Positions 2,401 to 54,136 of a stretch of DNA of 54,136 nucleotides are shown in pieces. A model generated the notes under the pieces. It searched no databases, was not told the DNA's origin, and saw nothing but the letters and a program-made list of their open reading frames with translations. Positions within the stretch are counted from its first letter, which is position 1, and the number at the start of each line of letters is the position of its first letter. The position numbers and the translations under genes were made by a program. This stretch comes from Dehalococcoidia bacterium (GTDB lineage: Bacteria; Chloroflexota; Dehalococcoidia; GIF9; AB-539-J10), in the NCBI GenBank assembly GCA_049516035.1, contig JBEKTM010000001.1:1-54136 (forward strand). The letters run 5' to 3'.

Positions 2401-4719
2401 ATGATTGGTGAAAAAGAAATATTAGCTGCAATAAACAGTATTTCGACTACGCTTGCGACTGGGACCTTGACTACCTCGTCTACCACCGTTCCAGCCGATA
2501 CTGGACGTACCGAAGTCGACCATTATTGGGATGGGTGTATCTTAATGCCGATCTCTGGCGTTGATGCTTTCCAGCCCAGGATAATAAATTCATTCGCCAA
2601 TGCTGGCGGTGTTTTTACCCTTGATACTCCGCTCACAACAGCGCCAGGACTCGTAACTTATTCAATATTACCTAACCAGATCCCGGCCGTTCTTGCTACT
2701 TTGAATATGGCCGTTCCGGCCCCCGATTCAATCGCAAATGTTATCATGCGGGATGTTGTCGGAAACAAGGCGGATACCTCAAAATATTCTATCGCGGCCA
2801 CCCAGTCATTGGTTGCCATGCTTAAAGGAGTTTTGGCTTCCAGTATAGTGACCAACGGTACATTCACAACATCTTCAGCGACTGTGCCGGCTGATACCGG
2901 GAGAGCTGAAGCAACTAATTTCTGGAACGGTTGCACATTGATTCCCTTAACCGGTGCTGATGCGTTCCAACCGAGAGTAATCAAGTCATTTAATAATGCT
3001 GGCGGTGTGTTTACGATGGATATCGCTTTCACCGCCGCCACTGGCACGGTAGCCTATATTATATTGCCATCTCAAATTCCGGCTGACGTTGCCACCATTC
3101 TCGCTGATCTGGCAGTCCCTGGTGCTGATGTGGTAACGAATACCCTTGAGCGAGACGTTGTTGGAAACAAAACAGATGCAGCGAAATACGCGCCAGCGGC
3201 AACTCAAAGCATTATTGCCATGCTCAAGGGGCTTCTGGGTTCATCGTTAGTAGCCACAGGTACTTTCACGACATCCTCATCGACCGTGCCTGCGGATACA
3301 GGCAGGGCGGAGGCCAGCAGTTATTGGAAGGGATGCATTTTATTACCATTGACCGGCTCCGACGCATTCCAGCCGCGCTATATAATCGGTTTCAACAACA
3401 TCGGCGGCGTGTTCACGGTTGACCCCAATAATCCGTTTACCGCTGTTACTGGCTTAGTCGCCTATGCCATCCTGGCCGCGCAGACCGATTTCGTCCCCGC
3501 GGCGGATAGCGTCAATAACAATCAGCCGGAAGATGTTATTGGTAACAAGACGGATACGAATTCCGGTAACTCAATCATGGCCTCACAAAAGGTTCAGGCT
3601 GCCGATAACGCCGCCAATGTACTTTCTCGGGATGTTATCGGAAATAAGACAGATACGGTATCCAGCGGTTCTCTCCAGGGATTAAACCGGGTGCAGACGG
3701 CCGATAACGCTGCCAATACCAACATGAGGGATGTTGTTGGTAATAAAGCCGATACTGCCTCTACTACGATCAATGGTACCACATCGATTATGCGATACCT
3801 GAAGGGTATCATGGGATGGTTCCTTGTTCCTGGTGCTGATTCAGCGGCTGACACTGTCGAGAGGGATGTAGTAGGCGATAAAACCGATACGGCCAGTACA
3901 ACCATTAACGGTACCACCAGTTTAATGCGCTACTTGAAAGGTCTGCTTGGTCTTCATCCCGTCCCTGCTGCTGATTCAGCCAATAATATCAACATGCGGG
4001 ATGTAATCGGTAACAAAACCGATACTATAGTTTCCGGCTCGCTCCAAGGCACGACCAGAGCTCAAGTCGCTGACTCGGCCGCAAATAACAATATGCGTGA
4101 CGTTATCGGTAACAAGACCGACGCCGTTGTTCAGGCAGTGGCTGCCGGTAAGTCGATTATGGGGTATATCAAGGGTCTTATCACCTCGATCGGTAATCCA
4201 TCGGCGCATACTCTCGTGTCTTTGACCGCCAAGTGGGGAAACATCGCTCGTGATCTTACTACTATCCTCGGCGCGAGATGGAATGCCGCTGGCGATCTTG
4301 GTACTGACATTGCGGCCATTCTTGTCCTTGATGATAAAAAAGTAATTGGCAAGACCCAGATATTCGTAAAAGCCATTGCATCGGCGGCTAACGCTGGCGC
4401 TGTGGTAGCCGCCACGATTACTACTCAATCCTGTCTGATTAAGTCGATTGTTGTCCGCTCGAACGCTGCGACTACTGCCGACTTGACCAATATCACGATT
4501 AAGGGTGGCGCTGGTCTGGTGGTAACATTTATTGACGCTGTGACGGGTGTCAGAGCGAATATCGCCGCTGCCGACCAGCAGGTAGCCTGGACAGGCGCTG
4601 TAGCTCTGGTAGCAGCTAAAACGATTACCATAACGTTAACGGGAACGGGTGCTACCGCCGTTGATCTCACCATAACCTTCGAATACGAAGCGTTGGTTGA
4701 CGGAGGTTATTTAGCTTAA
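2401..4719 (+). CDS. Large repeat-containing fibre/adhesin-like protein
   Basis: 772-aa ORF with an AAGGA RBS. Contains three ~132-aa tandem domains (GT[LF]TTSS.TVPADTGR...W.GC...DAFQPR) followed by 8 copies of AD..(A)N...RDV[IV]GNK[TA]D. Confidence 0.75.
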   Translation: MIGEKEILAAINSISTTLATGTLTTSSTTVPADTGRTEVDHYWDGCILMPISGVDAFQPRIINSFANAGGVFTLDTPLTTAPGLVTYSILPNQIPAVLATLNMAVPAPDSIANVIMRDVVGNKADTSKYSIAATQSLVAMLKGVLASSIVTNGTFTTSSATVPADTGRAEATNFWNGCTLIPLTGADAFQPRVIKSFNNAGGVFTMDIAFTAATGTVAYIILPSQIPADVATILADLAVPGADVVTNTLERDVVGNKTDAAKYAPAATQSIIAMLKGLLGSSLVATGTFTTSSSTVPADTGRAEASSYWKGCILLPLTGSDAFQPRYIIGFNNIGGVFTVDPNNPFTAVTGLVAYAILAAQTDFVPAADSVNNNQPEDVIGNKTDTNSGNSIMASQKVQAADNAANVLSRDVIGNKTDTVSSGSLQGLNRVQTADNAANTNMRDVVGNKADTASTTINGTTSIMRYLKGIMGWFLVPGADSAADTVERDVVGDKTDTASTTINGTTSLMRYLKGLLGLHPVPAADSANNINMRDVIGNKTDTIVSGSLQGTTRAQVADSAANNNMRDVIGNKTDAVVQAVAAGKSIMGYIKGLITSIGNPSAHTLVSLTAKWGNIARDLTTILGARWNAAGDLGTDIAAILVLDDKKVIGKTQIFVKAIASAANAGAVVAATITTQSCLIKSIVVRSNAATTADLTNITIKGGAGLVVTFIDAVTGVRANIAAADQQVAWTGAVALVAAKTITITLTGTGATAVDLTITFEYEALVDGGYLA

Positions 4720-5156
4720 TGATTTACGTTAATGGCGTTGCTTCATCATCGGGCGTAATATTAAAGCCTTCGGCGACGGTGAGAAATACCGCGAAAAATT
4801 GCGCCGATGTAAACACAATACCCGATCATGTCTATACTGAAGTGGCGAGGCTAACAATCGGAGAAAAAATAACAGGCGCTATTACGATTAGCGTCACCTT
4901 TACAAATTCGGCCGCGTGTCTTTATAAATTCTTGGAAAATGGCGTCTTGATCGGGACGGCGGACGTAAACCCCGGCGCGGCGCAAGCCCACACAGTCACG
5001 GTGAATACCAATAACGTCTCAGGCGGGGCTAATTCTATTGCCAGTGGCGATTATTTCGCTTTAATGGTCGAAGGCAATACCGGAACCGTCAATATTACTA
5101 CCATTTCAATCTCACCAACATTTGATATTGACGCGAGTAATATATCCGCGACGTAA
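4719..5156 (+). CDS. Hypothetical protein
   Basis: 145-aa ORF. Its start overlaps the upstream stop (TAATG). Confidence 0.6.
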   Translation: MIYVNGVASSSGVILKPSATVRNTAKNCADVNTIPDHVYTEVARLTIGEKITGAITISVTFTNSAACLYKFLENGVLIGTADVNPGAAQAHTVTVNTNNVSGGANSIASGDYFALMVEGNTGTVNITTISISPTFDIDASNISAT

Positions 5157-5381
5157 AGGGGGGAATATAAAAGTTAAAGATTTACTGAGCTTAATATCGG
5201 GCGGCTTTTCCCTGGCTTCGCTTCTTTTCTGCCTTTACAACTTCATCTCGGTTGTCTGGGAGCTATTACACCCAATGTAACAACTTATCTTGCTCCGGGA
5301 AATGGTGTTACTCAGGTCAATGAAATTAAGCTTCGAGCAACCGCTCCCGGCCTGCTTGGAAATCTGTTTGTTCAACAGAGG

Positions 5382-5597
5382 GTGGCTAGTGGAGCCGGTG
5401 GTACGACCGAGGTTTATACAGTGCGGGTAAACGGTGTAAATACTGCCATTACCTGTACTTTGAACAACGTCCTGATTGGGAGTGATATTACCCATTCAGT
5501 GCGGGTCGCAGCTGGAGACGCCATCAGTATTAGCGTGACTTCAAATAATGCTGTAGATACCAGTGCCGATATGATAGCATCGCTACTAATCTCGTAA
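5382..5597 (+). CDS. Hypothetical protein, N-terminus unresolved
   Basis: GTG-started 71-aa ORF, but the same frame is open and protein-like from 5178 with no ATG/GTG/TTG. Confidence 0.4.
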   Translation: MASGAGGTTEVYTVRVNGVNTAITCTLNNVLIGSDITHSVRVAAGDAISISVTSNNAVDTSADMIASLLIS

Positions 5598-5607
5598 GGA
5601 GTTTGAA

Positions 5608-5958
5608 ATGCCAAGAACAATTACAACTGAATTTCACCTGACTCAAATCAAGGAGTATTCCTGGACGGTTAAGGTTAACGTTCCACACGCTCAGGTGATT
5701 GAGAATTATGTTGTCACAGATGATGAATTCACGGCGACGCCCGAAGGTCTAAAACAGCTTCCTGTCGAATTTTCCGCTGATGAGCAGGCGGCACTGGATG
5801 GATTAATGTTACGCGCCTTAAAACGGGCGGCTATCCGTGAAGAGGTGGACGTCGAGCCGCAGATTAAACCGACTACCGATACCGTCGATGAGATTGCCGA
5901 TGTTATCCCGGTCGGAACCATAACCGTAAAACCGATTGGGAAACTCGTCGTTGAATAG
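5608..5958 (+). CDS. Hypothetical protein
   Basis: 116-aa ORF with TAAGGAG RBS. Confidence 0.65.
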   Translation: MPRTITTEFHLTQIKEYSWTVKVNVPHAQVIENYVVTDDEFTATPEGLKQLPVEFSADEQAALDGLMLRALKRAAIREEVDVEPQIKPTTDTVDEIADVIPVGTITVKPIGKLVVE

Positions 5959-6019
5959 CGGAAAGTGGCTGGAGAAGAACAAGAAGGAAACCAAAGACCA
6001 AGAGTAAGGCGGTTAAAAT

Positions 6020-6469
6020 ATGGACAGGAATGAAAAGATCGCGATTGGAGTAGTAGGGGGTACATTGTTTTTAGGGGGTATCGTTTACGCGGTTACCAGG
6101 CCAAGCGAAGGAAAACCAACTCCAGGTACTGGTCCAGCTTCTTTTACTGTTAGGGTAGTAAATCTTCCGGCTGGTGCTGACCATTGGAGTTTGGCTTTTC
6201 AAAATCCCACTACGGGTATTTGGTATCAACGAGCGAATCTTCCTTTCCCACCGCCTCCTGGAGCCGGCTTGTTACTTCCAACTGATGTTGCGCCAATGTC
6301 TGTGCCCGTCTCTGCTGGAATTCTTTCTATTGGTGCCGCGGCAGGAAGTGGCGGTACAGGGAATAACGGAGTAGTAGTTCCGATTGTTGTAGCAAGCTAC
6401 GAAATTAATATCTCCGTTGTGAATGGGGGCTCATATACATTTGATTTCAATACACAAGTATTAAGTTAA
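6020..6469 (+). CDS. Membrane-anchored hypothetical protein
   Basis: 149-aa ORF. N-terminal hydrophobic helix (IAIGVVGGTLFLGGIVYAV). Confidence 0.6.
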   Translation: MDRNEKIAIGVVGGTLFLGGIVYAVTRPSEGKPTPGTGPASFTVRVVNLPAGADHWSLAFQNPTTGIWYQRANLPFPPPPGAGLLLPTDVAPMSVPVSAGILSIGAAAGSGGTGNNGVVVPIVVASYEINISVVNGGSYTFDFNTQVLS

Positions 6470-6481
6470 GGAGGGTCTAAC

Positions 6482-6808
6482 GTGGCTAATATTGTAGTTC
6501 CAACTGGACAAAGAGTTCTTACGGTTCCAATTACGGTAGTACCAGCTGGACAGGCGTTTTCTGCCTCTGTCTATCTTTCTAGTGATTCAGCCGGCCTTAA
6601 TTCAGTTGCAGCAGGATCACAGGTTACGGCACCGACATCTACCGGGGTAGCTCAGAATGTAGCCCTACCAGTTGCAGCGCCTGCAAGTGGATCCGGGCTT
6701 TACGCTTGGGTTGTTGTCTATGTAAACGGTGCTTACTGGGGTACGTTTAGCCAGATTAACACCGTAACGATTGGTGGTGTCACTGTCGGTCAAGGTACCT
6801 GGTCTTAA
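6482..6808 (+). CDS. Hypothetical protein, paralog of the N-terminus of 6828..7643
   Basis: GTG start with AAGGAGGG RBS. The LTVPI.V.PG...VYLS.D..G.N.V...YAWVVV..NG..WG motif is shared with the next ORF. Confidence 0.6.
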   Translation: MANIVVPTGQRVLTVPITVVPAGQAFSASVYLSSDSAGLNSVAAGSQVTAPTSTGVAQNVALPVAAPASGSGLYAWVVVYVNGAYWGTFSQINTVTIGGVTVGQGTWS

Positions 6809-6827
6809 ATTATAACCGAGGCGGAAA

Positions 6828-7643
6828 ATGGCCATATTAACAGCGGGAGCACACGTGCTTACCGTTCCGATTATTGTATCGCCGGGGATTACTTGGGGAG
6901 GTTATGTTTACCTGTCTACTGATGCGCTTGGTGCCAATCCGGTATCAGGTGCGACAGGTACGATAGTGACTTCACCCAATAAATCCAATGGGTTAGCACA
7001 AAATATATCTCTACCGGTTAATGTGCCATCCAACGGTGGGCCCTTTTATGCTTGGGTAGTAGTTTTATTGAATGGTTCATTCTGGGGTGTTTATTCTCAA
7101 AATGAACTGGTATCTCTCCCATTCATTTATCAATCCGGTGCCGTCCAGCTCTTCGACGTCAACGGAATACCCTTCTCGGATATCGGCCATGATGACGTTA
7201 CGGGACTGGACTACGTGACGCTGGCCAATCCGATAATTTCGCCCACCGTGCAGGGTATATCAATCGATTGGCTGGTGAGCCAGTATCCGCTGTATTACGG
7301 TGTGATTAATGGACAGACGCAAAGCATGTACGGCCTGATCTACGCCTCCATCGATTACATCAACCAGGCCACCGGACAGGATGAGATATTCCGGTCAGCG
7401 GACGGCGTTGCCCAATCAGCGAGGAACTTCTTCAACTGGCAACAAAATGGTTACCTGTCATTACCGGCGCCCGGGTCCATGGTGAACACGCCGATCAACC
7501 AGACTAACATAATGGGACGTCCGACCCTCTACGTCGATGAGCCGATCGATGGTATCCTCACACTGAATATCGCCCAGGGAAGATATCTGACGCCGGCCGG
7601 TGGATTATCGCTCAGGATCAAAAACCTGATGCGGCCTTCATAA
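6828..7643 (+). CDS. Hypothetical protein (N-terminal domain paralogous to 6482..6808)
   Basis: 271-aa ORF. Shares an N-terminal ~95-aa domain with the upstream ORF. Confidence 0.65.
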   Translation: MAILTAGAHVLTVPIIVSPGITWGGYVYLSTDALGANPVSGATGTIVTSPNKSNGLAQNISLPVNVPSNGGPFYAWVVVLLNGSFWGVYSQNELVSLPFIYQSGAVQLFDVNGIPFSDIGHDDVTGLDYVTLANPIISPTVQGISIDWLVSQYPLYYGVINGQTQSMYGLIYASIDYINQATGQDEIFRSADGVAQSARNFFNWQQNGYLSLPAPGSMVNTPINQTNIMGRPTLYVDEPIDGILTLNIAQGRYLTPAGGLSLRIKNLMRPS

Positions 7644-11210: not shown

Positions 11211-11230
11211 GAGTTCCTAATTAGTTGACA

Positions 11231-11322
11231 ATGGGGTATTGTAGCTGGATAAAAGCCGGGGCTTGCATGATTTCCCCCGGCTGCCGTCGTCATTAACGGT
11301 CCTCCAATCCAGCGATACCCAT
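11231..11322 (+). ncRNA. Candidate structured RNA (three-way junction), possible sRNA or complex 3' end
   Basis: Outer stem 11231-11250/11307-11322 (8 + 7 bp). Hairpin AGCCGGGG/CCCCGGCT (11254-11282). Hairpin CCGT/ACGG (11284-11299). TTGACA lies at 11225 upstream and an intrinsic terminator at 11328 downstream. Confidence 0.3.
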
Positions 11323-11327
11323 TATCG

Positions 11328-11362
11328 AAAGCGAGAGTTACCGGGGTGGGCTCTCGCTTTTT
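11328..11362 (+). terminator. Rho-independent terminator
   Basis: GCGAGAG ... CTCTCGC stem followed by TTTTT. Confidence 0.7.
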
Positions 11363-11401
11363 ATTATACGTAAAAATACCTATTTTACTCTCGAAAAACC
11401 C

Positions 11402-11431
11402 TTGACATGGTATTATTGGTCAGTCTATCAT
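11402..11431 (+). promoter_or_regulatory. Sigma70-like promoter candidate
   Basis: TTGACA, 18-nt spacer, TATCAT. Confidence 0.4.
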
Positions 11432-11446
11432 TATTGCGATAATTCT

Positions 11447-11492
11447 ATTAGGAATTTTTGATAAACCATGGCTACAGCGCCCATTAGGAATT
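11447..11492 (+). repeat. 10-bp direct repeat ATTAGGAATT x2 upstream of the integrase operon
   Basis: Copies at 11447-11456 and 11483-11492. Confidence 0.7.
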
Positions 11493-11572
11493 CAAGTCGT
11501 GATGCTGCCTGCGATAGTGGATTACAGTTCTTAGAAATAGTAATTAGATAATTTTTGGAGGTCAATTAAAAT

Positions 11573-11942: not shown

Positions 11943-12851
11943 ATGGCAACGAATCCTGAAATAATAATTCCTACGAAAGAACAAATCCTGGAGGTTTATA
12001 CCAATCACCTGTCGAGCAAGGGCGCGGCCCGGCAGCATGTCTTGAGCTACGCGTCTGAGTTTCTCGAATATGCGGAGGGCGATTACACCCGGGCTACCAT
12101 CGAGAAATACATGGAGCATATCAAAAGAAAGCATGAATACAAAGATAGCAGTCTTAACTTTATCTTCCGTGTGATCCGCACCATGTTTAACCGGAATAAA
12201 CTCGACTGGCCCTTTAACCGGGGTGAAGCGCCAATGGTTAGAGAATCGAGCATCCTAGCACCGGCGCTGGGGCCCCGGACGGTACGCCGGGCGATTGCCG
12301 CGGTCAAGAAAAGCGACGACGCTGCGGCAAAGGCTTTTCTTGCCCTGTCTACCGTTTACGGAGTGAGGCGTCAGGAAATCATGAATATCACAGCTGAAGA
12401 TATAAGGTACAAGGATAAGACTATCTACATTGCGACCTTAAAGCATGGCCGGGAGAGAACACATCTTCTCCCGGATGAAATCATTCCTTATCTTCAGGAC
12501 TACGATTTCGATACCCCGCGCTCCGGTTTTGGAATGCTCATGTTATGGTATTCTATTGAGAGAATGATTGATTTCAAGCACCTGGAGCATGTTGGTTTTC
12601 ATTCCATCCGGAGAACAGTTGAAACCCTTCTCGAGAGGGAATTCAAGGATCTTGTTCTTGTTAGAAACTTCATGCGCTGGAAGACCCAAGATTCTAACGA
12701 TATGGTCCAGCGGTATTCGGCGACGCAGTTCGTCGGAGACGATGAGGAATATACCGAGCTCAACGAAGACAGCAAGAGCGTTGACCAGTTGATATTCGCA
12801 AAGAGGGAAGACGGGACGTACAGACACCCGTTTCTCGGGGATTGGAAATAA
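11943..12851 (+). CDS. int: Tyrosine recombinase / phage integrase
   Basis: Catalytic signature pieces: YGVRRQEI (Arg I), HSIRRT (H-x-x-R), and W...MVQRYSAT (C-terminal Tyr). AAGGAGAGG RBS. Confidence 0.85.
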   Translation: MATNPEIIIPTKEQILEVYTNHLSSKGAARQHVLSYASEFLEYAEGDYTRATIEKYMEHIKRKHEYKDSSLNFIFRVIRTMFNRNKLDWPFNRGEAPMVRESSILAPALGPRTVRRAIAAVKKSDDAAAKAFLALSTVYGVRRQEIMNITAEDIRYKDKTIYIATLKHGRERTHLLPDEIIPYLQDYDFDTPRSGFGMLMLWYSIERMIDFKHLEHVGFHSIRRTVETLLEREFKDLVLVRNFMRWKTQDSNDMVQRYSATQFVGDDEEYTELNEDSKSVDQLIFAKREDGTYRHPFLGDWK

Positions 12852-13081
12852 TGGATATATGGTGTAGCCAAAACAACTGTACGGCGTTATGTTTAGGCAA
12901 TGGTTTTTGCCATTTTACGTTTACAGCTTCAAATTCTGCGGCCTCAACTCCACCATCAATTTATTATGATACCGCACCGGATGAAAAACTAAGCGAAAAG
13001 CCGAAGCCTTATAATAAGCAAAAAGATCGTCCTGAATATTGGAAACCGAAATTCGAAAGGACGTTCAAATCAAGGCGGTGA
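12842..13081 (+). CDS. Doubtful ORF in the integrase-distal spacer
   Basis: 79-aa ORF that overlaps the integrase stop and has no RBS. This stretch may instead be non-coding (attP candidate). Confidence 0.2.
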   Translation: MEIMDIWCSQNNCTALCLGNGFCHFTFTASNSAASTPPSIYYDTAPDEKLSEKPKPYNKQKDRPEYWKPKFERTFKSRR

Positions 13082-14662: not shown

Positions 14663-15001
14663 ATGAGCTACGTTGATAATACCGACCTAGTTTGTCCTGT
14701 TTGTGGAAAGCCGATTGTTCATTTCGAGAATCAGGGTTGCTATGAATATCTAAGATGTACTGGTGACCCCATCCGCCATTGCTTTCTTGTGAATTATAAA
14801 ACATGTAAGGAAGAAGATGAGCGTGCCCTTGAAAGCTGGACTTACCTCACTTATAGCGATTACCATAAACCTGGTCCAATCAAGATTGGAATGCGCATAG
14901 AGAATGAGATTAAAGATGAAAGTTCTGGTATACGAAATTATTGGAGAAGCGTAAAAACACCAGAAGCTTACAAAGAAGATTACAAGGAAGGGGAAAATTA
15001 A
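14663..15001 (+). CDS. Zinc-ribbon hypothetical protein
   Basis: 112 aa with CPVCG ... C..C-type cysteines. Confidence 0.6.
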   Translation: MSYVDNTDLVCPVCGKPIVHFENQGCYEYLRCTGDPIRHCFLVNYKTCKEEDERALESWTYLTYSDYHKPGPIKIGMRIENEIKDESSGIRNYWRSVKTPEAYKEDYKEGEN

Positions 15002-15002
15002 A

Positions 15003-15338
15003 ATGCCAAGACAAGTGATGATTCATAAGTTTGGATTATCTCTTTACCCAATCACCCTTGAACTTAATGACAATGAAGATGTCTGTCCAAATTGCAAGGG
15101 GTCAGGCCAAACAACGGTCTATTGTGATCCCGGGCCAAATAGACATACTCCCTGATGGCTATGTTCGAGCACCGGGAAAGTGCCCAAATGTAGGATATGC
15201 GGAGTCCTGGCGGCCGGCTTGTCACTGGAATTTTTGCCTATCACCAAAACAGGTTTATGCCGCGAGTGCGCCAAGGCTGGAATCGAGATTGAGAAAGTAA
15301 AGAAACCCTCGAAGGTGTTTCATAATAATTGGCATTAA
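15003..15338 (+). CDS. Zinc-ribbon protein interrupted by an in-frame TGA (15153..15155): recoding, readthrough or pseudogene
   Basis: The ATG overlaps the upstream stop (TAAAATG). The frame reads ...CPNCKGSG...HTP[TGA]WLCSS...CRICG...CRECAKAG... to TAA at 15336. It replaces the implausible track ORF 15031..15300. Confidence 0.5.
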
Positions 15339-15352
15339 TAAGGGAGGTTATC

Positions 15353-17015: not shown

Positions 17016-17366
17016 ATGAAAGATTATTACGCGATCTTAGAAATTCCCCGGACTTCCAGCGATAACGAAATAAAGCATGCCTATCGCAAGCTGGCATTCA
17101 AGTATCACCCCGACAAGAATCCTGGCCAGGAGAAAGAAGCTGAGGAAAAGTTCAAGGAAATAAACGAGGCTTATAGAGTCCTGGGGGATCCGGCAAAGCG
17201 CCGAAATTATGACCTCGAGAGAAGCCAGCTGTTTAGACCGATGACCCCAATCTTTAATCCTGGATATCCATTTACTACTTATCCATTTACTACTTCAGTA
17301 GGTGTCAACGGCATAAACTTTGGTGGTACCAATATAAGAATGAGATTCTACACCTGGCATACTTAA
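17016..17366 (+). CDS. J-domain (DnaJ-like) co-chaperone protein
   Basis: DYYAILEI...[16 protein letters not shown]...[18 protein letters not shown] is a canonical J-domain with the HPD tripeptide. Confidence 0.85.
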
Positions 17367-18990: not shown

Positions 18991-19016
18991 TTAATTATTC
19001 CATAGTAACACGCGGG
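18991..19016. repeat. Left arm of the 26-bp inverted repeat flanking gene 19046..19387
   Basis: TTAATTATTCCATAGTAACACGCGGG. Confidence 0.85.
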
Positions 19017-19045
19017 AAATAAAAAATAAAAATCGGAGGTAGCCA

Positions 19046-19387
19046 ATGACACAATTATTGATGACGCCCGAAGGTAAAAAGGTAATAATTAACACAGAAC
19101 ACGACGATAATTTGTACGAAGCTCCGCGCAACCCGCCGAATACAGGAACCAGATTTACATCAGGAACCAATCTTTATGCTCATAAATCCCGAACTGGTAC
19201 TGTTTACTTCTATACTTATTCCTGGAGCATGTGGGAGGGACATGAAGACAACTATGAGCTAGTTTCGGTTGACGATGCGAAAAAGTTTATTCTCGAACGA
19301 TCAACCGAAGCCAGGCGTGTTGCCGGTGGGGTAGACAAACCAACTTGTCTAAAGTATTTCCCTGGTCTCTTTGAGGAAGATGCCTAA
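19046..19387 (+). CDS. Hypothetical protein (gene bracketed by a 26-bp inverted repeat)
   Basis: 113-aa ORF with CGGAGG RBS. Flanked by the inverted repeats at 18991 and 19398. Confidence 0.6.
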   Translation: MTQLLMTPEGKKVIINTEHDDNLYEAPRNPPNTGTRFTSGTNLYAHKSRTGTVYFYTYSWSMWEGHEDNYELVSVDDAKKFILERSTEARRVAGGVDKPTCLKYFPGLFEEDA

Positions 19388-19397
19388 ATAAAATAAA

Positions 19398-19423
19398 CCC
19401 GCGTGTTACTACGGAATAGTTAA
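19398..19423. repeat. Right arm of the 26-bp inverted repeat
   Basis: CCCGCGTGTTACTACGGAATAGTTAA. 24 of 26 positions are complementary to the left arm, and one of the two mismatches would be a G-U pair in RNA. Confidence 0.85.
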
Positions 19424-19457
19424 TTTTAACTTTACGATAAGGAGGGAAGAGAAAGGT

Positions 19458-19625
19458 ATGATCATCTTAACCACAGCACAAGTAAACGAAATTTACGAAG
19501 GGATTGATTTCATGGATGATGAAGTTGGAATAGAACTATGCATCATCCGTGATGGAAAGTACATTCGAGCCAGTTACTTTAATCATAACGGTACAATCAC
19601 TCATATTAAAGAAATCGAGGCGTAA
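19458..19625 (+). CDS. Small hypothetical protein (55 aa)
   Basis: Below the track cutoff. AAGGAGGG RBS. Sequence MIILTTAQVNEIYEG... Confidence 0.5.
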   Translation: MIILTTAQVNEIYEGIDFMDDEVGIELCIIRDGKYIRASYFNHNGTITHIKEIEA

Positions 19626-19626
19626 G

Positions 19627-20010
19627 ATGAAATCTAAATTAATAGTTGGTATTCTTTTATGCCTTTGCTTAACCGCGTGCATTTCAAACAAGCCCGGTGT
19701 CGCCATTCCGCCCGGCAGCTGTACTACCAGCGACAACATTGATATCGATTCCAATGAACAAATAACAATTCAGCTGCACACCGACCAATGGCAGCAGGGC
19801 AATATTAAGGTCGTTAATACCCAGGATGCCGACTGCCTTATAGTCGAGACTGACAGACATGATAGCGACGAGACGTGGGACATAATAATAAATATAGTTC
19901 CGCAGAACCAATCGGGTGAAGACACCTACCGCGTCGTGTTGAGTAACCAGTCCAGCCAGGCAATGCATGCATCGATAAACTATTTAATTGGTCAAAAAGG
20001 GGAAGTGTAA
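19627..20010 (+). CDS. Lipoprotein (signal peptide plus lipobox)
   Basis: MKSKLIVGILLCLCLTAC carries the L-T-A-C lipobox. The start is internal to the track ORF 19549..20010. Confidence 0.65.
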   Translation: MKSKLIVGILLCLCLTACISNKPGVAIPPGSCTTSDNIDIDSNEQITIQLHTDQWQQGNIKVVNTQDADCLIVETDRHDSDETWDIIINIVPQNQSGEDTYRVVLSNQSSQAMHASINYLIGQKGEV

Positions 20011-20013
20011 GAA

Positions 20014-20238
20014 ATGAAACCCTCATGGATCAAGGTTGATGAAGAGCGCGTCCTGTCCGACGGAAGCAAGGCAAGCGTAGAGCATGTCGGCCGGATGTAC
20101 TTCTACTCCCGCCTCTACCTGAATCCGGAAGAGAATCCCATGGAGCATCAAGGTTTTACCGGCAAGGGCTCCAAAAACAAGGCCATGAAAATACTCGAAG
20201 AAGCATTGAAAAACGATGTTCTCGAGAAGGAGGAGTAG
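20014..20238 (+). CDS. Hypothetical protein
   Basis: 74-aa ORF, tightly packed. Confidence 0.5.
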   Translation: MKPSWIKVDEERVLSDGSKASVEHVGRMYFYSRLYLNPEENPMEHQGFTGKGSKNKAMKILEEALKNDVLEKEE

Positions 20239-20240
20239 CT

Positions 20241-20468
20241 TTGGAAAATGACGAAAAATATTATCCGAAAATAAGAATATTCGTCACCCGCAATTTTAAA
20301 TTCCGTGTCGAGATCAAAGAGAATAAAGATGCCAGACCCTACCAAATTACGATGGGTGGCGAAGCATGGAATTCGGGCTCGGGCCGTAAATACGAGAAAA
20401 TTATAAAAGAGAAGCTGAATAAAATCATAATTCAGCTCTCAACTGAAGCCGAATCTCTTTTAAGGTAA
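20241..20468 (+). CDS. Hypothetical protein
   Basis: TTG start 7 nt after GGAGG. Confidence 0.5.
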   Translation: MENDEKYYPKIRIFVTRNFKFRVEIKENKDARPYQITMGGEAWNSGSGRKYEKIIKEKLNKIIIQLSTEAESLLR

Positions 20469-20478
20469 GGAGGAGTAA

Positions 20479-20646
20479 ATGGAATTCCTGGAAAACAAAA
20501 TTCTTTATATCTTCGGTGAAGACGGATATTTCATTGAGGATACCAAGACCCACGAAATATGGAAGCTCAGGCCAGCGACTCCTGAAGAGCGCGATGAACT
20601 GCTTCAGCGAATGATGAAAAACTCCAATAAAGCTCTTCCGAATTAG
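20479..20646 (+). CDS. Small hypothetical protein (55 aa)
   Basis: Below the track cutoff. AAGGAGG RBS. Sequence MEFLENKILYIFGEDGYF... Confidence 0.5.
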   Translation: MEFLENKILYIFGEDGYFIEDTKTHEIWKLRPATPEERDELLQRMMKNSNKALPN

Positions 20647-20649
20647 CTT

Positions 20650-20665
20650 TATTTCTTGAGAAATA
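20650..20665. repeat. Palindrome variant TATTTCTTGAGAAATA (copy 2, one mismatch)
   Basis: Ends 16 nt before ATG 20682. Confidence 0.8.
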
Positions 20666-20681
20666 TTTTAGGGAGGTGATC

Positions 20682-21080
20682 ATGATTCAGGAAAACATCA
20701 AAGTGATGCAAAAAGATGCAAAATGCATCAAACCGCTGCACCCGGAGATCAAGGCGGCCCTCGAGAAACACGGGCAAAAATGGATAATCGCCGCCCAGGT
20801 ACACGGCTCGATTGGCTACTTCGATCCCCGCGATGCCGAACGAAACCTTAAACACTATCTCGAGGGAGAAAGGGAGGACTTCTGCGAGCGATGCTACTCC
20901 CTTTACGCCGGCAAGCTCGAGGACATGCTTCTCTGGGATATCCAAATGTTCAGATACTTCCAAGAAGAGTGCCCTGATTCCTACAAGGCGACAATGGTAT
21001 TCATTCATAAATGGATGAACCTCCCGGAAGAGCCATTCGGAAATTCAATTGGTTTAATGTACCCGGTAATAGCGCCATAA
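20682..21080 (+). CDS. Hypothetical protein
   Basis: AGGGAGGTGA RBS before ATG 20682. Confidence 0.6.
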   Translation: MIQENIKVMQKDAKCIKPLHPEIKAALEKHGQKWIIAAQVHGSIGYFDPRDAERNLKHYLEGEREDFCERCYSLYAGKLEDMLLWDIQMFRYFQEECPDSYKATMVFIHKWMNLPEEPFGNSIGLMYPVIAP

Positions 21081-21089
21081 AGGAGGAAT

Positions 21090-21338
21090 ATGGAAATCAA
21101 AAGATTAACTAACGAAGACATCCAAAAATTAAGAGCCGGAATGATCGTCTACGCGGCCGAGGATATCCACCTTATTATCGGCAAAGTCCCGATCGGCACT
21201 CGCGGAAAGATTAGCCTGGTTGTCAGGGGCAGCCACTTCATGGGGGCGCACGTTACTTTTGATAACGGCATCAAGACTACCAACCCCATGCCGGTAAATT
21301 TCCTTACCAGGGAAAAATCTGTGAAGAAAGAAGGTTAA
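21090..21338 (+). CDS. Hypothetical protein
   Basis: 82 aa with AAAGGAGG RBS. Ends in ...KKEG. Confidence 0.55.
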   Translation: MEIKRLTNEDIQKLRAGMIVYAAEDIHLIIGKVPIGTRGKISLVVRGSHFMGAHVTFDNGIKTTNPMPVNFLTREKSVKKEG

Positions 21339-21342
21339 CATG
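21323..21342 (+). repeat. Direct repeat A1 (GAAGAAAGAAGGTTAACATG)
   Basis: 19 of 20 positions identical to 21516..21535. Confidence 0.85.
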
Positions 21343-21531
21343 AAGGAAATCTGGATCCGCAGAGATAGAAACGATGGAGAAGAGGAAGAAATAACAAAAG
21401 GAGCGGCCAAGGCACGTTTAATCGGGTTTTACCATCGCATAAACGTTGCCATGGCACACGCTTCCAGACAGGTCCCACTAACAACGGGTTACGCTGATTA
21501 TTATCCCAAAGAAGAGAAGAAAGAAGGTTAG
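21340..21531 (+). CDS. Hypothetical protein (gene bracketed by a 20-bp direct repeat)
   Basis: 63 aa. Also ends in ...KKEG. The junction sequence is repeated on both sides. Confidence 0.5.
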   Translation: MKEIWIRRDRNDGEEEEITKGAAKARLIGFYHRINVAMAHASRQVPLTTGYADYYPKEEKKEG

Positions 21532-21535
21532 CATG
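21516..21535 (+). repeat. Direct repeat A2 (GAAGAAAGAAGGTTAGCATG)
   Basis: Pairs with 21323..21342. Together they bracket gene 21340..21531. Confidence 0.85.
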
Positions 21536-21892
21536 GATAATATAATACTGGAGAAAACAAGGATCAGCATTCCGCCCTATCATGAGCTCGTTAAAGATGT
21601 TCCCGCAATGCAAATGCTCCCGGCCGTTTATCGCGACGTCATGGCTGCCTTCGGAGAGGAATTCTTCACCTGCATAAGCGAGGCTGCGCGAGTCCCGGAA
21701 CCGAAAGAAATGGTCATCATTTTCAACCCGATGCGCGTCGCCGGCACGCAATACATCTGGGAATTCGAGGTTAAAAACCTCATCAAGCCCGACGATCCCC
21801 GGAAAATCAACTGGCACGGCCAGGATACCTCACAATGGGCTTATGCCGGCTGTATTCTCCTCCAGAACGGAAGGGTATCAAGGAACCATTAA
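21533..21892 (+). CDS. Hypothetical protein
   Basis: 119-aa ORF. Confidence 0.55.
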   Translation: MDNIILEKTRISIPPYHELVKDVPAMQMLPAVYRDVMAAFGEEFFTCISEAARVPEPKEMVIIFNPMRVAGTQYIWEFEVKNLIKPDDPRKINWHGQDTSQWAYAGCILLQNGRVSRNH

Positions 21893-21979
21893 ATTTTATT
21901 TCCCGGTCAGCTGTCAAGCCTCCCTCATTTCCAGGCGGCTTGAATGGTGTACAGGAATATTAAAAAGGGGAGGTGAAAA

Positions 21980-22195
21980 TTGCCAAGCGTTTACACTGAC
22001 GGCCTAAACCATCTTGACTTGCAGTATTCCAATTCTAAATTCGGTAAGGACACGATGAAATTGCGGAACGCGAAGGCTAAGCAACTCCGCAAGGAAGGCT
22101 GGACCGTCAAATGCGGACATACCAGCTTCGAAGACCTTGCTCGCGATGAAATCTATTGGATCGAGGCCAAGATACCTAAGACGGGAGGTAAATAA
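21980..22195 (+). CDS. Hypothetical protein
   Basis: TTG start after GGGGAGGTGA. Confidence 0.5.
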   Translation: MPSVYTDGLNHLDLQYSNSKFGKDTMKLRNAKAKQLRKEGWTVKCGHTSFEDLARDEIYWIEAKIPKTGGK

Positions 22196-22197
22196 CG

Positions 22198-22635
22198 GTG
22201 TTTTTTGAAAAAAGGATCTACTCCATACAAGAAATCGAAACAATCGACGATCTCGCAGAAAATCTAACCCAGCACATATGGCCGCTCTGCACCGGATTCA
22301 GCCATAAGGGGCTGTTATTCCTCAATGACTCCACTTCGGAGGACGGCGCCGGCGAATGGGCGGTACTTATTCCAAAAGATAAGATGCTCGATGAATACGA
22401 AATCGAGGATTTCCGCCCGGTGCCGCTCCCGACAAAAATCATCAAAGCCAATATTCCGGACGGCATGGCGATCCAGATCGAGAGTATCACTTTCGGCTGG
22501 TGCAACCAGCATGAAGGAGTAGAGTGCATCTTAAAATGCCTTGATTACCTCAACGGCAAAGCGCCACTGCCCTTCGCTGCACCTGCGAAAATCAACCTAA
22601 ATCACCCGGCCGGGACCTGCCGGCATTGCTCATAA
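22198..22635 (+). CDS. Hypothetical protein
   Basis: GTG start after GGGAGG. 145 aa. Confidence 0.55.
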   Translation: MFFEKRIYSIQEIETIDDLAENLTQHIWPLCTGFSHKGLLFLNDSTSEDGAGEWAVLIPKDKMLDEYEIEDFRPVPLPTKIIKANIPDGMAIQIESITFGWCNQHEGVECILKCLDYLNGKAPLPFAAPAKINLNHPAGTCRHCS

Positions 22636-22914
22636 ATGTTGTACGAAATTTTCGATATCAACCATTTCACTGTTTTGGGGCCGTCAAATACCATCGAGGC
22701 CGACCGGCACGTAGATGCAGCCCGAAAATACCTCGAAAGCATCGGCGAGGGAAACAAAACACTAAAAGTCTCAGCCAGGAATGATGTCAGAATAAAGGTC
22801 AGCCCGGTCGTTATGAAAGACGGTCGCCTCTTCCGACTCGCCGGCCGGGGGATCCGCCAGCTGTGGTTCGAGGTAAGCGAGCCAAAATCAAATAAGCAGG
22901 ACCCGATATTTTAG
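22636..22914 (+). CDS. Hypothetical protein
   Basis: 92 aa. Ends in ...KQDPIF. Confidence 0.5.
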   Translation: MLYEIFDINHFTVLGPSNTIEADRHVDAARKYLESIGEGNKTLKVSARNDVRIKVSPVVMKDGRLFRLAGRGIRQLWFEVSEPKSNKQDPIF

Positions 22915-22923
22915 GGAGATGAA
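22894..22923 (+). repeat. Direct repeat B1 (AAGCAGGACCCGATATTTTAGGGAGATGAA)
   Basis: 25 of 30 positions identical to 23405..23434. Confidence 0.75.
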
Positions 22924-23425
22924 CATGGCTGAAAAAGTCGATTACTGGATATCCAATGCTGTCGGTGCCTTTTTTGACCCTATCATCGTCATGCCCGGGG
23001 GTTGGGGCGATTCTCTGCCAGAAGCAATCAAGACTCAGATAACCCTCGAGCGTCTGATCATGAATATACAGGGATTACAGGGAGACCAGATGACCGGGAC
23101 CGACGCCGAGGCGGCAGCTTATCTCTATACCGCCTCTCTCACAGCGCCGATGGGAGATCACTGGGTTAATATTTACATGTACGTCTTTAACCAGGTCATG
23201 AAACATCAAAAAATAGAAGTTCCGGATGATCTGAAAGTTGAGACGCTGGGTAATTATGAGATGGGCATGCTTCGAGACCTCAAGGCGTGGATCTACCGGA
23301 AAAGAGTGGAAGCCAGGCAGCAGCGCGACCGGGAAGAAAGACGCGGAAAAAATAACAAGGCTAAAAACAACCCACAGCAGAATACGTTCCACGAAGATAA
23401 ATATAAACAAGACCCAATCTTTTAG
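22919..23425 (+). CDS. Hypothetical protein (gene bracketed by a ~30-bp direct repeat)
   Basis: 168 aa. The start may instead be ATG 22925. Also ends in ...KQDPIF. Confidence 0.55.
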   Translation: MNMAEKVDYWISNAVGAFFDPIIVMPGGWGDSLPEAIKTQITLERLIMNIQGLQGDQMTGTDAEAAAYLYTASLTAPMGDHWVNIYMYVFNQVMKHQKIEVPDDLKVETLGNYEMGMLRDLKAWIYRKRVEARQQRDREERRGKNNKAKNNPQQNTFHEDKYKQDPIF

Positions 23426-23434
23426 GGAGGTGAA
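23405..23434 (+). repeat. Direct repeat B2 (AAACAAGACCCAATCTTTTAGGGAGGTGAA)
   Basis: Pairs with 22894..22923. Together they bracket gene 22919..23425. Confidence 0.75.
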
Positions 23435-23683
23435 ATGCAAGAAAAATTAAACAAGCAGGGTCAAGATTACATCGCCAGCCTGCGCCAGGCGGTACACGTC
23501 CTCTGGGAAGCAATGTGCAAAGAGGAAGGCATTCCACCTGATTCTAAATTCGTTGTCTTCTCGAAGGCGACGGAAAAGAAGTTTCGCCAATTCTACGATA
23601 GAGCCTTAAATGAGCTGTGGGAAGCCGAAGCGCAATATAGGGCCGGCGGATACGTAGGATTAAAAATTAAGAAGGGAAGGTAA
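23435..23683 (+). CDS. Hypothetical protein
   Basis: 82 aa with AGGGAGGTGA RBS. Confidence 0.55.
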   Translation: MQEKLNKQGQDYIASLRQAVHVLWEAMCKEEGIPPDSKFVVFSKATEKKFRQFYDRALNELWEAEAQYRAGGYVGLKIKKGR

Positions 23684-23687
23684 TTAA

Positions 23688-24608
23688 ATGCCGAATGATC
23701 CCAAAAACATCTTTTATCACGAAGCTATTAGAAAACAACTAGACATGGCCGAATCTCTTTCAAATAACGATGTGGGTTCCTTTTCTTCGGTTATAGAGTA
23801 TCCCAACAATAAAGAAAAATATAACTTCAAAAAAATGTTCATAAGTAGTATATCAAACGCAGAGCCATTTTGGGTCTCTCGTCAAATTGAAGAATTGGTT
23901 TTATCAGCGTCAGAAAATTTACCACCTGTACCACTAACACGGGAATTATTTCCAGTACCAAATGGATTTATTTATTTTGAACAGCCCATTGAATTATCAG
24001 ATATTAAACAATCAATGATGGAAATAAATAAATTAAGGGCTATTTGTTGGGATACGTCAATCGCATCAGAAAACAGTATTCAGGGAATATTATTGATGCT
24101 TATGCTTTGGGATCGCTTCGATAAAAAGCTTAAATTATGGGTAACTCAAGGTTGGGTTTTCGGAGATTCTTATGATGCAATTCAACACGACGATGCACTC
24201 ATTGATAATCCCAAAGCCTATGAACGATTAAGTAAAGAAATTTGGAACAAGAGCGAACAAAGATGCCGTAAAATCTTTCTAACCCTATTGTGTTTTATAA
24301 AACAGAGACTTTTTACTACAATTAAAACCCCTGGAACAAATGCCCTCTATAGAAAACCAATAAACAAACCCGAGCCAGAAGTTCCCCTAATTAACATTAT
24401 TACCTTAAGGCCCAAGACAACAGTACTTTCAGGAGAACATCGAGACGTAGATTGGCAATATCGCTGGCTGGTACGTGGGCATTGGAGACAACAATGGTAC
24501 CGGTCTGATAATACACATCGGGCAATATGGATTACTCCTTACATTAAGGGCCCAGAAAATAAACCACTAAAAAAGCCGAGTGTAAATTTGTTTGCAGTTA
24601 TAAGATAA
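23688..24608 (+). CDS. Hypothetical protein in a visibly AT-richer segment
   Basis: 306 aa. C-terminal RWLVRGHWRQQWY...IWITPYIKGP motif. Composition differs from the neighbouring genes. Confidence 0.6.
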   Translation: MPNDPKNIFYHEAIRKQLDMAESLSNNDVGSFSSVIEYPNNKEKYNFKKMFISSISNAEPFWVSRQIEELVLSASENLPPVPLTRELFPVPNGFIYFEQPIELSDIKQSMMEINKLRAICWDTSIASENSIQGILLMLMLWDRFDKKLKLWVTQGWVFGDSYDAIQHDDALIDNPKAYERLSKEIWNKSEQRCRKIFLTLLCFIKQRLFTTIKTPGTNALYRKPINKPEPEVPLINIITLRPKTTVLSGEHRDVDWQYRWLVRGHWRQQWYRSDNTHRAIWITPYIKGPENKPLKKPSVNLFAVIR

Positions 24609-25703: not shown

Positions 25704-25712
25704 TGGAGAAAC

Positions 25713-26033
25713 ATGGCTAAGTGCGAAAACTGCGGACAAGAAATGCTTAAAGCCGATGGATGCACCTATACATACATTCGGCCAAAAGGAGATCCTAAAT
25801 GGTATAAGCGCCTCACCGATGGCTACGCCCAGCCCGGCGAACGGTGACAGGATTGCGGTGCCCTGTATGGGCACACTCACCATTTTGGATGCGATAACGA
25901 ACGCTGCCCGAAATGCGGTGGACAAATCATATCTTGTAATTGTTTCACCGAGAATTCCGAGCTTGCCAATATGGTACCGCTGGCACCGAAGGAGGTGAAA
26001 AGCAATAAACAAACTGACCCGTTTAGCCAATAG
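25713..26033 (+). CDS. Zinc-ribbon protein interrupted by an in-frame TGA (25845..25847): recoding, readthrough or pseudogene
   Basis: GGAG RBS. Reads MAKCENCG...GYAQPGER[TGA][32 protein letters not shown]... to TAG at 26031. There is no start codon for the second half. It replaces the track ORF 25756..25998. Confidence 0.55.
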
Positions 26034-26060
26034 AACAAAAAATAAAAATGGGAGGTAACC

Positions 26061-53712: not shown

Positions 53713-54136
53713 ATGGAACACGAGTTATATACAGACCTGGAAAAGATTCTTGATTCAGTATTTGGTACGCCTGATATAGTCGATGGCGTCTATATGGACG
53801 TGGTAGCCGGTGTTCCCGGGACTGCTTGGCCTATTGGTTTACCTGGAAACCCTGTAAACAACCTGGCCGATGCTATCACTATCATGGCCGCTAAAGATAA
53901 CTGGAATTTGCACCTTGTCGGCGCTCGTGACTTTGCTGGTACATATACCCCGGTAGTTGTCAATCCGACCGTAATGACCGACGCTAATATTGCGCCAATG
54001 AAGGTCAATAGCCTGGTCGGTCTTACCATCCAGAATACCACGGATGGAAGTCATGGGGTGATTACCGCCAATGACGCTCAGACGATTACTGCGGTGCTGG
54101 TTGGCGGTGCGACTAACCAGTGGAACCCGGGCAATG
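53713..54136 (+). CDS. Fibre/adhesin-like protein, N-terminal part (3' partial)
   Basis: AAGGAG RBS. Runs off the window end. Residues YTPVVVNPTVMTDANI...NQWNPG are paralogous to the ORF at 1..1875. Confidence 0.7.
   Translation, partial: MEHELYTDLEKILDSVFGTPDIVDGVYMDVVAGVPGTAWPIGLPGNPVNNLADAITIMAAKDNWNLHLVGARDFAGTYTPVVVNPTVMTDANIAPMKVNSLVGLTIQNTTDGSHGVITANDAQTITAVLVGGATNQWNPGN

Follow-up and report, generated by a model that had tools for sequence, protein, structure and literature searches.

Two phage zinc-finger genes interrupted by in-frame UGA at cysteine positions: candidate sites of selenocysteine insertion

The window, that is, the whole stretch of DNA analyzed here, is the 54,136-nt contig JBEKTM010000001.1, a phage genome with nearly all genes on the plus strand that encodes an integrase, a J-domain protein, ParB, a primase-polymerase and a helicase. 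Two short Cys-rich genes of this genome, Zn1 (25713-26033) and Zn2 (15003-15338), are each interrupted by an in-frame TGA located at a Cys position of a putative metal-binding motif. The TGAs of Zn1 and Zn2 are referred to as site 1 and site 2, and the features of the two loci are as follows:

25705..25709, plus strand: Shine-Dalgarno sequence GGAGA of Zn1, 3 nt before the ATG at 25713
25713..25844, plus strand: Zn1 codons 1-44, an N-terminal part with the CENC knuckle and C17, to which the corresponding halves of 15 full-length homologues align
25845..25847, plus strand: in-frame TGA of Zn1 at an invariant Cys column (E-R-[C]-x-D-C), context CGG UGA C, the same in 10 contigs
25848..26033, plus strand: Zn1 codons 46-106 (61 codons, same frame) and the TAG stop at 26031-26033
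25848..25887, plus strand: 40-nt stem-loop of site 1, directly after the UGA, minimum free energy (MFE) -18.3 kcal/mol
14984..14993, plus strand: purine-rich ribosome-binding site (RBS) AAGGAAGGGG of Zn2
15003..15152, plus strand: Zn2 codons 1-50 (CPNCKGSG knuckle)
15153..15155, plus strand: in-frame TGA of Zn2 at the first Cys of the second CxxC repeat ([TGA]-W-L-C-S-S-T-G), context CCC UGA U
15156..15338, plus strand: Zn2 codons 52-111 (CRIC and CREC knuckles; 60 codons) and the TAA stop at 15336
15159..15193, plus strand: weak candidate stem-loop of site 2, upper stem GCAC/GUGC (4 bp), -2.7 to -3.7 kcal/mol for the hairpin alone

The initial annotation of the Zn1 locus had described an ATG at 25713 supported by an RBS, 44 codons, the TGA at 25845-25847 and the same frame continued to the TAG at 26031, and the sequence reads exactly so. 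The part after the TGA, called protein-like in that annotation, does keep all invariant downstream residues of the protein family (D47, C48, G53, H56, H57, G59, C60, D61, E63, C65, P66, C68, G69, Q71, C75 and C77), and the first in-frame ATG, GTG or TTG after the TGA at 25845 lies 41 codons downstream. A search with the joined translation retrieved 15 proteins of 80-150 amino acids (aa), each a single protein that spans both halves, with Cys invariant at the TGA column (15/15); thus, Zn1 is one gene. At the nucleotide level, the codon in this column is TGC or TGT in all 160 homologous loci among the matches listed (80/80 in IMG/VR and 80/80 in metagenomes), in agreement with the proposed alignment of the TGA with Cys.

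The Zn1 family is a widespread phage family with 12 conserved Cys/His positions, 10 Cys and 2 His, that follow the pattern C4 C7 C17 C45 C48 H56 H57 C60 C65 C68 C75 C77 with the core HHxGCDxERCPxCGGQ; the copy in the window is complete except for position 45, which is the TGA. In Pfam, no family corresponds to Zn1, and only generic zinc-ribbon families match it, below threshold. The AlphaFold2 (AF2) model of one homologue (P0001) has a predicted local distance difference test (pLDDT) score of 90.8, and a fold search of this model against the PDB gave no match at E<3. The C-terminal Cys/His module of Zn1 (CxDC...H..GCD..RC..CG) also lies mid-way in a 201-aa protein, gp274 of Mycobacterium phage I3 (L001, 364-969); thus, the module occurs as a domain of larger proteins as well. 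Residues 44-80 of Zn1 weakly match the PHROG family 'gpCom control of modification' (E 0.0012). The gpCom protein of phage Mu is a zinc-finger protein that binds an mRNA hairpin, and this weak match hints that the Zn1 family may bind RNA.

Several other accounts of the Zn1 interruption were considered and rejected: (i) a sequencing or assembly error is ruled out by the recurrence of the TGAs in 19 independent contig reads (10 for Zn1 and 9 for Zn2), and for Zn1 the 357-nt region 25704-26060, from the DUF932 gene to parB, is 100% identical, TGA included, in 10/10 independent contigs from ENA, JGI and SRA/Logan; (ii) two genes or an internal restart disagree with the homologues, which are single proteins, and with the lack of a start within 41 codons; (iii) a frameshift disagrees with the alignment of both halves to homologues in the same frame; and (iv) an alternative-frame open reading frame (ORF) at 25756-25998 was discarded, since homology backs the zinc-finger frame. 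The error that the initial annotation had named as a way to overturn its claim is therefore not the explanation, the 10 contigs being identical. Neither downstream frame, in Zn1 or in Zn2, contains extra stops or frameshifts, and no TGY allele was seen at either TGA in the 10 contigs that cover Zn1 and the 9 that cover Zn2.

The recurrence of the U/C-x-x-C geometry at 15153, pointed out in the same annotation, proved to reflect a real second gene. The ATG at 15003, the TGA at 15153 and the TAA at 15336 of Zn2 are present in 9/9 independent contigs, and the frame fills the gap exactly up to the next gene, which starts with the ATG at 15344. The knuckle series of Zn2 reads CPNC / [UGA]WLC / CRIC / CREC. 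With Cys placed at the TGA, the Pfam family DnaJ_CXXCXGXG (PF00684) matches residues 25-66, which span the stop, with 23.0 bits (E 9.7e-5), a score below the gathering score of 32.7 bits; with Trp, Gly or Ala at this position the score falls to 11.5-12.8 bits, and either half alone gives no PF00684 match. The family phrog_28723 also matches Zn2 (E 2.4e-5). Sequence homologues of Zn2 were sought and none was found, and the assignment of Cys to its TGA position is a matter of profile evidence only. An arrangement as two genes or an internal restart was rejected here too, as the Pfam domain spans the UGA, and an alternative-frame ORF (15031-15300) was rejected because it matches no family. A gene encoding only a J domain (17016-17366; Pfam DnaJ, E 4e-29) lies 1.7 kb downstream of Zn2; the two DnaJ modules, the J domain and the DnaJ-zinc-finger-like Zn2, appear to be separate small genes in this phage.

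Zn1 and Zn2 are the only interrupted genes in the genome, and both are interrupted by TGA at Cys positions. Cys makes up 1.26% of codons genome-wide, or ~205 Cys codons in ~90 genes. Single-base routes to a stop pass through Cys codons in 21% and 17% of cases in the two genes (joint P = 0.036), and two TGAs at Cys positions are more than chance. A scan with loose settings over 973 kb from other phages yielded off-frame noise and natural gene ends, but no CxxC gene interrupted by TGA in a comparable way, and the two related phage contigs scanned for in-frame TGAs yielded none that was convincing. Coding potential based on codon usage is uninformative for Zn1 and Zn2, which are short and atypical genes. 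In gene calling on >40 contigs neither was called whole, and one 34-aa fragment was called.

For the selenocysteine insertion sequence (SECIS), we used the published bacterial (bSECIS) consensus, namely an apical loop of 3-9 nt with a G in its first two positions, a stem of at least 4 bp, a UGA-to-loop distance of 16-37 nt and an MFE of at most -7.5 kcal/mol (PMC13188914). The 6-bp hairpin GTGCCC-TGTAT-GGGCAC at 25858-25874, 10 nt from the UGA, had been noticed earlier for its SECIS-like distance; it is indeed there and forms part of the 40-nt stem-loop of site 1, which conforms to all four points of the consensus. The upper stem, GGUGCCC/GGGCAC(A)C, occupies 25857-25876, and the loop UGUAU (25864-25868) lies 16 nt after the UGA and carries G-U at loop positions 2-3. 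Compliance alone is weak evidence, because 34% of the 894 TGA triplets of the window satisfy the consensus; the energy of site 1 is in the top 2.6% of TGA triplets under the consensus model. With the loop 16-18 nt after the UGA, the hairpin of site 1 (-10.7 kcal/mol) is the strongest among 894 plus-strand and 903 minus-strand TGA triplets, a ranking somewhat inflated by a loop window that was picked after seeing the data. Only 1.5-3% of Cys-bearing homologues of similar G+C content (GC) fold as well as site 1.

The hairpin of site 2 is marginal. Its loop CGGGAAA (15173-15179), in which position 2 is a G, starts 17 nt after the UGA, and the hairpin is in the top 3.4% for this geometry. Rfam searches around both TGA sites gave no matches at either gathering or permissive thresholds. 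The hexamer GTGCCC has 8 plus-strand copies in the window; two of them (15180 and 25858) lie within 36 nt downstream of the in-frame TGAs, where they form opposite arms of the two candidate hairpins.

A second occurrence of the site 1 hairpin was found in one Zn1 homologue. Of the 110 distinct homologue sequences with Cys in this column, 1 forms a hairpin of such geometry at <= -6 kcal/mol, and ~10% form a weaker one. The single case is L107 (JFBN01303384.1), an unrelated phage contig of 32% GC whose Zn1-family protein is ~50% identical. Comparison of L107 2638-2683 with window 25845-25890 revealed an identical 18-mer, GGTGCCCTGTATGGGCAC (GGT GCC CTG TAT GGG CAC), which in L107 follows a TGT Cys codon, and the L107 stem extends to 14 bp (-20.1 kcal/mol). 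The six hairpin codons are highly atypical for the L107 contig, in which CTG is 1 of 74 Leu codons (joint P ~2e-6). Four other homologues contain GALYG, three of them the full GALYGH, encoded by different codons and without the hairpin. For the window and L107, RNAalifold also proposes an outer helix with one compensatory pair (CGG/CAC vs CGA/CAT). In IMG/VR, no further copy of the hairpin was detected within the Zn1 family. Since the 18-mer is kept against codon usage in L107, the hairpin is a selected nucleic-acid element tied to the position of the TGA/Cys codon. Of the 111 family members, 2 have it, the window copy with TGA and L107 with TGT, and this argues that the window hairpin is not a mere by-product of the protein sequence. 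For L107, possible readings are a Sec-to-Cys revertant (Sec, selenocysteine), a SECIS acting on UGU, or a different function; it could stimulate a translational pause or readthrough, serve as an RNA site for autoregulation or, at the DNA level, act as a 6-N5-6 palindrome.

The genomic context of the two genes was established from the window and other assemblies. The contig end continues into a variant of the contig start in other assemblies, and the genome is therefore complete, circular or circularly permuted; the phage is temperate. ARAGORN detected 0 tRNA genes in the complete genome, tRNA-Sec included, and there were 0 Rfam matches, so a suppressor tRNA, offered earlier as an alternative, is not encoded by the phage itself. 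Stop usage over 93 ORF ends is TAA 65, TAG 19 and TGA 9, TGA being the rarest. The helicase gene is terminated by TGA exactly at the end point of its 62%-identical homologue, and TGA works as a terminator elsewhere in the phage genome. The TGA terminators at 13079 and 43573 lie 1 and 8 codons, respectively, ahead of the ATG of the following gene and share its frame; UGA readthrough there would fuse a 79-aa ORF to a 522-aa protein and a 112-aa protein to a 176-aa protein, respectively.

The 358-aa DUF932 protein adjoining Zn1 recurs in identical form on at least 20 contigs, drawn from independent assemblies of ENA, JGI and SRA/Logan. The DUF932 proteins of the two nearest relatives are 72% and 59% identical, and in both relatives DUF932 is directly next to ParB with no Zn1 between them; thus, Zn1 is an insertion specific to the lineage of the window, moron-like and probably dispensable. 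A plus-strand terminator was sought between DUF932, Zn1 and ParB, and none was found. The phage population is nearly clonal, with ~1 single-nucleotide polymorphism (SNP) per 10 kb outside three hypervariable patches. Compared with contigs L175, L176 and L178, these patches (window 1-1500, 3500-4000 and 5000-7000, the first also delimited as about 1.0-1.5 kb) diverge by up to ~30% and are probably receptor-binding or tail genes. The contig ends (1-193 vs 53944-54136) are ~70% identical and lie inside such a patch, which is probably the reason why the circle stayed open. Mosaicism is seen at window positions 19000-24600, where the otherwise identical contigs L084, L090 and L175 carry other genes upstream of DUF932, namely a 280-aa gene and a DNA-polymerase-III-beta-like gene. 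The two nearest relatives possess a prokaryotic ubiquitin-like cluster (L172, 4095-8101; L173, 3583-6531) with Prok_Ub, Prok-E2 and JAB in both and ThiF/E1 additionally in L172. The only long non-coding stretch of the window (11211-11572, 362 nt) precedes a 114-aa ORF and the integrase gene (11943-12851); it contains a terminator-like hairpin (11342-11356) followed by a near-consensus promoter (11402-11431, TTGACA-18-TATCAT, 11/12). This stretch showed no tRNA fragment and no Rfam match, at permissive thresholds too, and attP was not located.

Searches for the host gave one hint. One of the nearest relatives is a 69.6-kb contig binned in a Chloroflexota metagenome-assembled genome (MAG), and a DUF932 profile search of GTDB genomes had as its sole match a related phage-like contig in a Chloroflexota MAG. 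An exact 39-mer of the phage had no match in GTDB genomes, no prophage junctions were found, the best phage matches reached only 30% identity, and a search for DNA similarity to cultured phages gave nothing.

The pairing of UGA with Cys in two unrelated genes, the intact state of all other genes, a use of UGA that depends on context and the exceptional hairpin at site 1 together lead us to favor host SelB-dependent insertion of Sec at the zinc-ligand positions of Zn1 and Zn2. It is the best single explanation, not a proven one, and we put forward this reading tentatively, at a probability somewhat short of even. The UGAs themselves are real and in frame, each within a single gene at a Cys position, and the hairpin of site 1 has SECIS geometry; from these we infer Sec decoding, SelB binding and any regulatory role. 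In a Sec-competent host, the stem-loop directly after the UGA would recruit SelB carrying Sec-tRNASec, and the UGA would be read as Sec to give full-length proteins of 106 aa (Zn1) and 111 aa (Zn2) with Sec as a metal ligand, while terminating ribosomes would release peptides of 44 and 50 aa. The output of full-length protein would be low and would depend on the selenium and SelB status of the host. Zn1 and Zn2 might then be the first phage-encoded selenoproteins, with an old hairpin shared with L107, itself a Sec-to-Cys revertant or a case of UGU-encoded Sec; this wider proposal is plausible and we hold it with due reserve, below an even chance.

A number of observations weigh against Sec insertion. 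Among the matches listed, 0 of ~175 relatives of Zn1 carry UGA; a scan of IMG/VR with the pattern TGA-x-D-C-x7-HH-x-G-C-D returned 0 matches; and truncated N-terminal fragments among 1.84 billion representative proteins were limited to that of the window itself. (GTGCCCTGTATGGGCAC and TGA-NNN-GAY-TGY-N21/27-CAYCAY-NNN-GGN-TGY-GAY are search strings for further TGA-bearing members in metagenome contigs.) An NCBIfam search with both proteins gave nothing above the curated cut-off, and the weak matches name no selenoprotein family. The Cys replaced by UGA seems to be a structural zinc ligand rather than a redox-active residue. The region of site 2 is no more structured than its shuffles (z +0.9), and in 2/9 contigs the loop G is lost to a natural SNP (15174 G>A). 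In L107 the hairpin is under selection without a UGA, after a TGT codon, and is therefore not unambiguous evidence of a SECIS. The Chloroflexota-binned related contig is the only hint for host assignment. Finally, the TGA could be recent, given that Zn1 is a lineage-specific insertion in a clonal population. Of the selenoprotein reading put forward in the initial annotation, the single gene, the Cys alignment, the genuine TGA, the SECIS-like hairpin and the second gene stand; no UGA-bearing homologue turned up among the matches listed, and neither protein belongs to a known selenoprotein family.

A recent TGY-to-TGA nonsense change, which that annotation had listed, is possible and leads to the rival that holds up best: both TGAs are nonsense mutations fixed in a clonal lineage, the UGA is not decoded, and the genes are dead or yield only the 44- and 50-aa peptides. 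TGA is one step from either Cys codon, and 17-21% of nonsense paths in these Cys-rich genes are at Cys codons; such paths would still have had to be taken twice independently, both times at Cys-ligand codons (0.036 given the genes hit), in a genome whose other genes are all unbroken. Among the ~175 homologues listed, only the window lineage has the TGA, and Zn1 is probably dispensable, being moron-like and missing from the closest relatives. At ~1 SNP per 10 kb outside the patches the events may be so recent that decay is not yet visible. Against this account, neither downstream frame shows an additional lesion, and all contigs, which come from several projects, have the two TGA alleles fixed. 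The hairpin exists without UGA in L107, which this account accommodates, yet it would be improbable under a pure nonsense model that the sole TGA-bearing member should be one of only two distinct family sequences, among 111, with a hairpin of SECIS geometry. We regard two nonsense alleles as doubtful, though a serious contender.

In another rival, readthrough is independent of Sec, whether programmed or tolerated: a near-cognate tRNA (Trp, less often Cys) would read the UGA at a few percent and throttle the full-length protein in the manner of Qbeta A1. UGA-C and UGA after a Pro codon are poor termination contexts in E. coli; site 1 has the former and site 2 the latter. The stable stem-loop directly after the site 1 UGA would also fit, and selection on the hairpin in a homologue with a Cys codon suggests a translational role without Sec. 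However, UGA readthrough in bacteria yields mostly Trp; in Zn1 this would eliminate an invariant zinc ligand, and in Zn2 Trp lowers the profile score by ~11 bits relative to Cys. Unless Cys is inserted, nothing in this account places both UGAs exactly at Cys positions, and in both genes the stop lies inside the domain, not between a complete domain and an extension as in known readthrough genes. Leaky termination of this kind is in our judgment unlikely.

A Cys-inserting UGA decoder supplied by the host, either an opal-suppressor tRNA-Cys or a system of the tRNA-ReC/SelB* type such as has been proposed for some anaerobes, would make both products ordinary Cys proteins. It would fit with the occurrence of UGA only at Cys positions, with the SelB-like position of the site 1 hairpin and with a phage that has no decoder of its own; a general suppressor, however, would also read through the TGA terminators of the phage, and no evidence points to such a host, so that we consider this very unlikely. 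An alternative genetic code with TGA as a sense codon (code 4 or 25, or TGA=Cys), to which the mere existence of in-frame TGAs and the rarity of TGA as a stop (9 of 93 ORF ends vs 65 for TAA) might have pointed, is effectively refuted by only 2 in-frame TGAs against ~205 Cys codons in ~90 genes, by the TGA that ends the helicase where its homologue ends, by alignment with Cys rather than Trp or Gly, and by the lack of a suppressor tRNA.

The initial annotation knew of no described phage-encoded selenoprotein, and we likewise found none in the literature searched, in which tRNA-Sec genes are mentioned in huge phages (PMC10747093). If host SelB-dependent Sec insertion is correct, it has several consequences: (i) phages can tap the Sec machinery of their hosts, which would extend a known recoding mechanism to a new setting, that of host and parasite, and give Sec an unusual role as a metal ligand; (ii) Sec can stand in for a structural metal ligand of zinc fingers; (iii) synthesis of Zn1 and Zn2 depends on the selenium status of the host; (iv) gene callers systematically miss such phage genes; and (v) the UGA with its 40 nt is a small testable system for the study of SECIS acquisition. 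Should the TGAs be nonsense alleles instead, they advise caution, as a Cys/TGA pair with a consensus-compliant hairpin can then arise without Sec.

Comparison with known systems reveals both common and distinct features. Stop-codon-recoded phages contain dense in-frame stops, mostly in late genes, and often encode their own suppressor tRNA (10.1101/2022.11.22.517103). Zn1 and Zn2 resemble them (codes 15, 4 and 25) in having in-frame stops in phage genes, possibly as a timing or throttle device; the difference is that the two UGAs of the window both stand at Cys positions and interrupt small accessory genes that are not among the recognizable replication genes, and that its phage has no tRNA and still uses TGA as a terminator. 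In Aeromonas salmonicida, a SECIS acting on the Cys codon UGU is documented (PMC10778597), and the L107 locus is similar in that UGU is followed by the identical selected hairpin; it differs in that there is no evidence that the L107 host has a tRNA-Sec reading UGU, and the similarity is a lead only.

Bacterial SelB/SECIS recoding of the E. coli fdhF type shares with the window an in-frame UGA that pairs with Cys in homologues and a stem-loop, only a candidate one at site 2, directly after the UGA, with the loop 16-17 nt downstream, G(U/G) at loop positions 2-3 and, at site 1, an MFE of at most -7.5 kcal/mol. In contrast to that type, Zn1 and Zn2 are phage-encoded and outside the known selenoprotein families, their Cys is a presumed structural zinc ligand of a zinc ribbon or DnaJ-type finger and not a redox-active residue, no UGA-bearing orthologues were found among the matches listed, and the site 2 hairpin is weak. 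In Qbeta A1, a complete coat domain precedes the stop, at which Trp is inserted. A leaky UGA in Zn1 or Zn2 would likewise give a short and a long product from one ORF, whereas their stop lies inside the metal-binding domain, in Zn1 at an invariant Cys.

Sec recoding has been described in bacteria, archaea and eukaryotes, and also in a few eukaryotic viruses. The viral selenoproteins include poxvirus homologues of glutathione peroxidase, for which the virus borrows the Sec machinery of the host to read an in-frame UGA; these are captured host redox enzymes with eukaryotic SECIS elements in the 3' untranslated region. Zn1 and Zn2, in contrast, are phage-specific zinc fingers with a bacterial-type hairpin inside the ORF.

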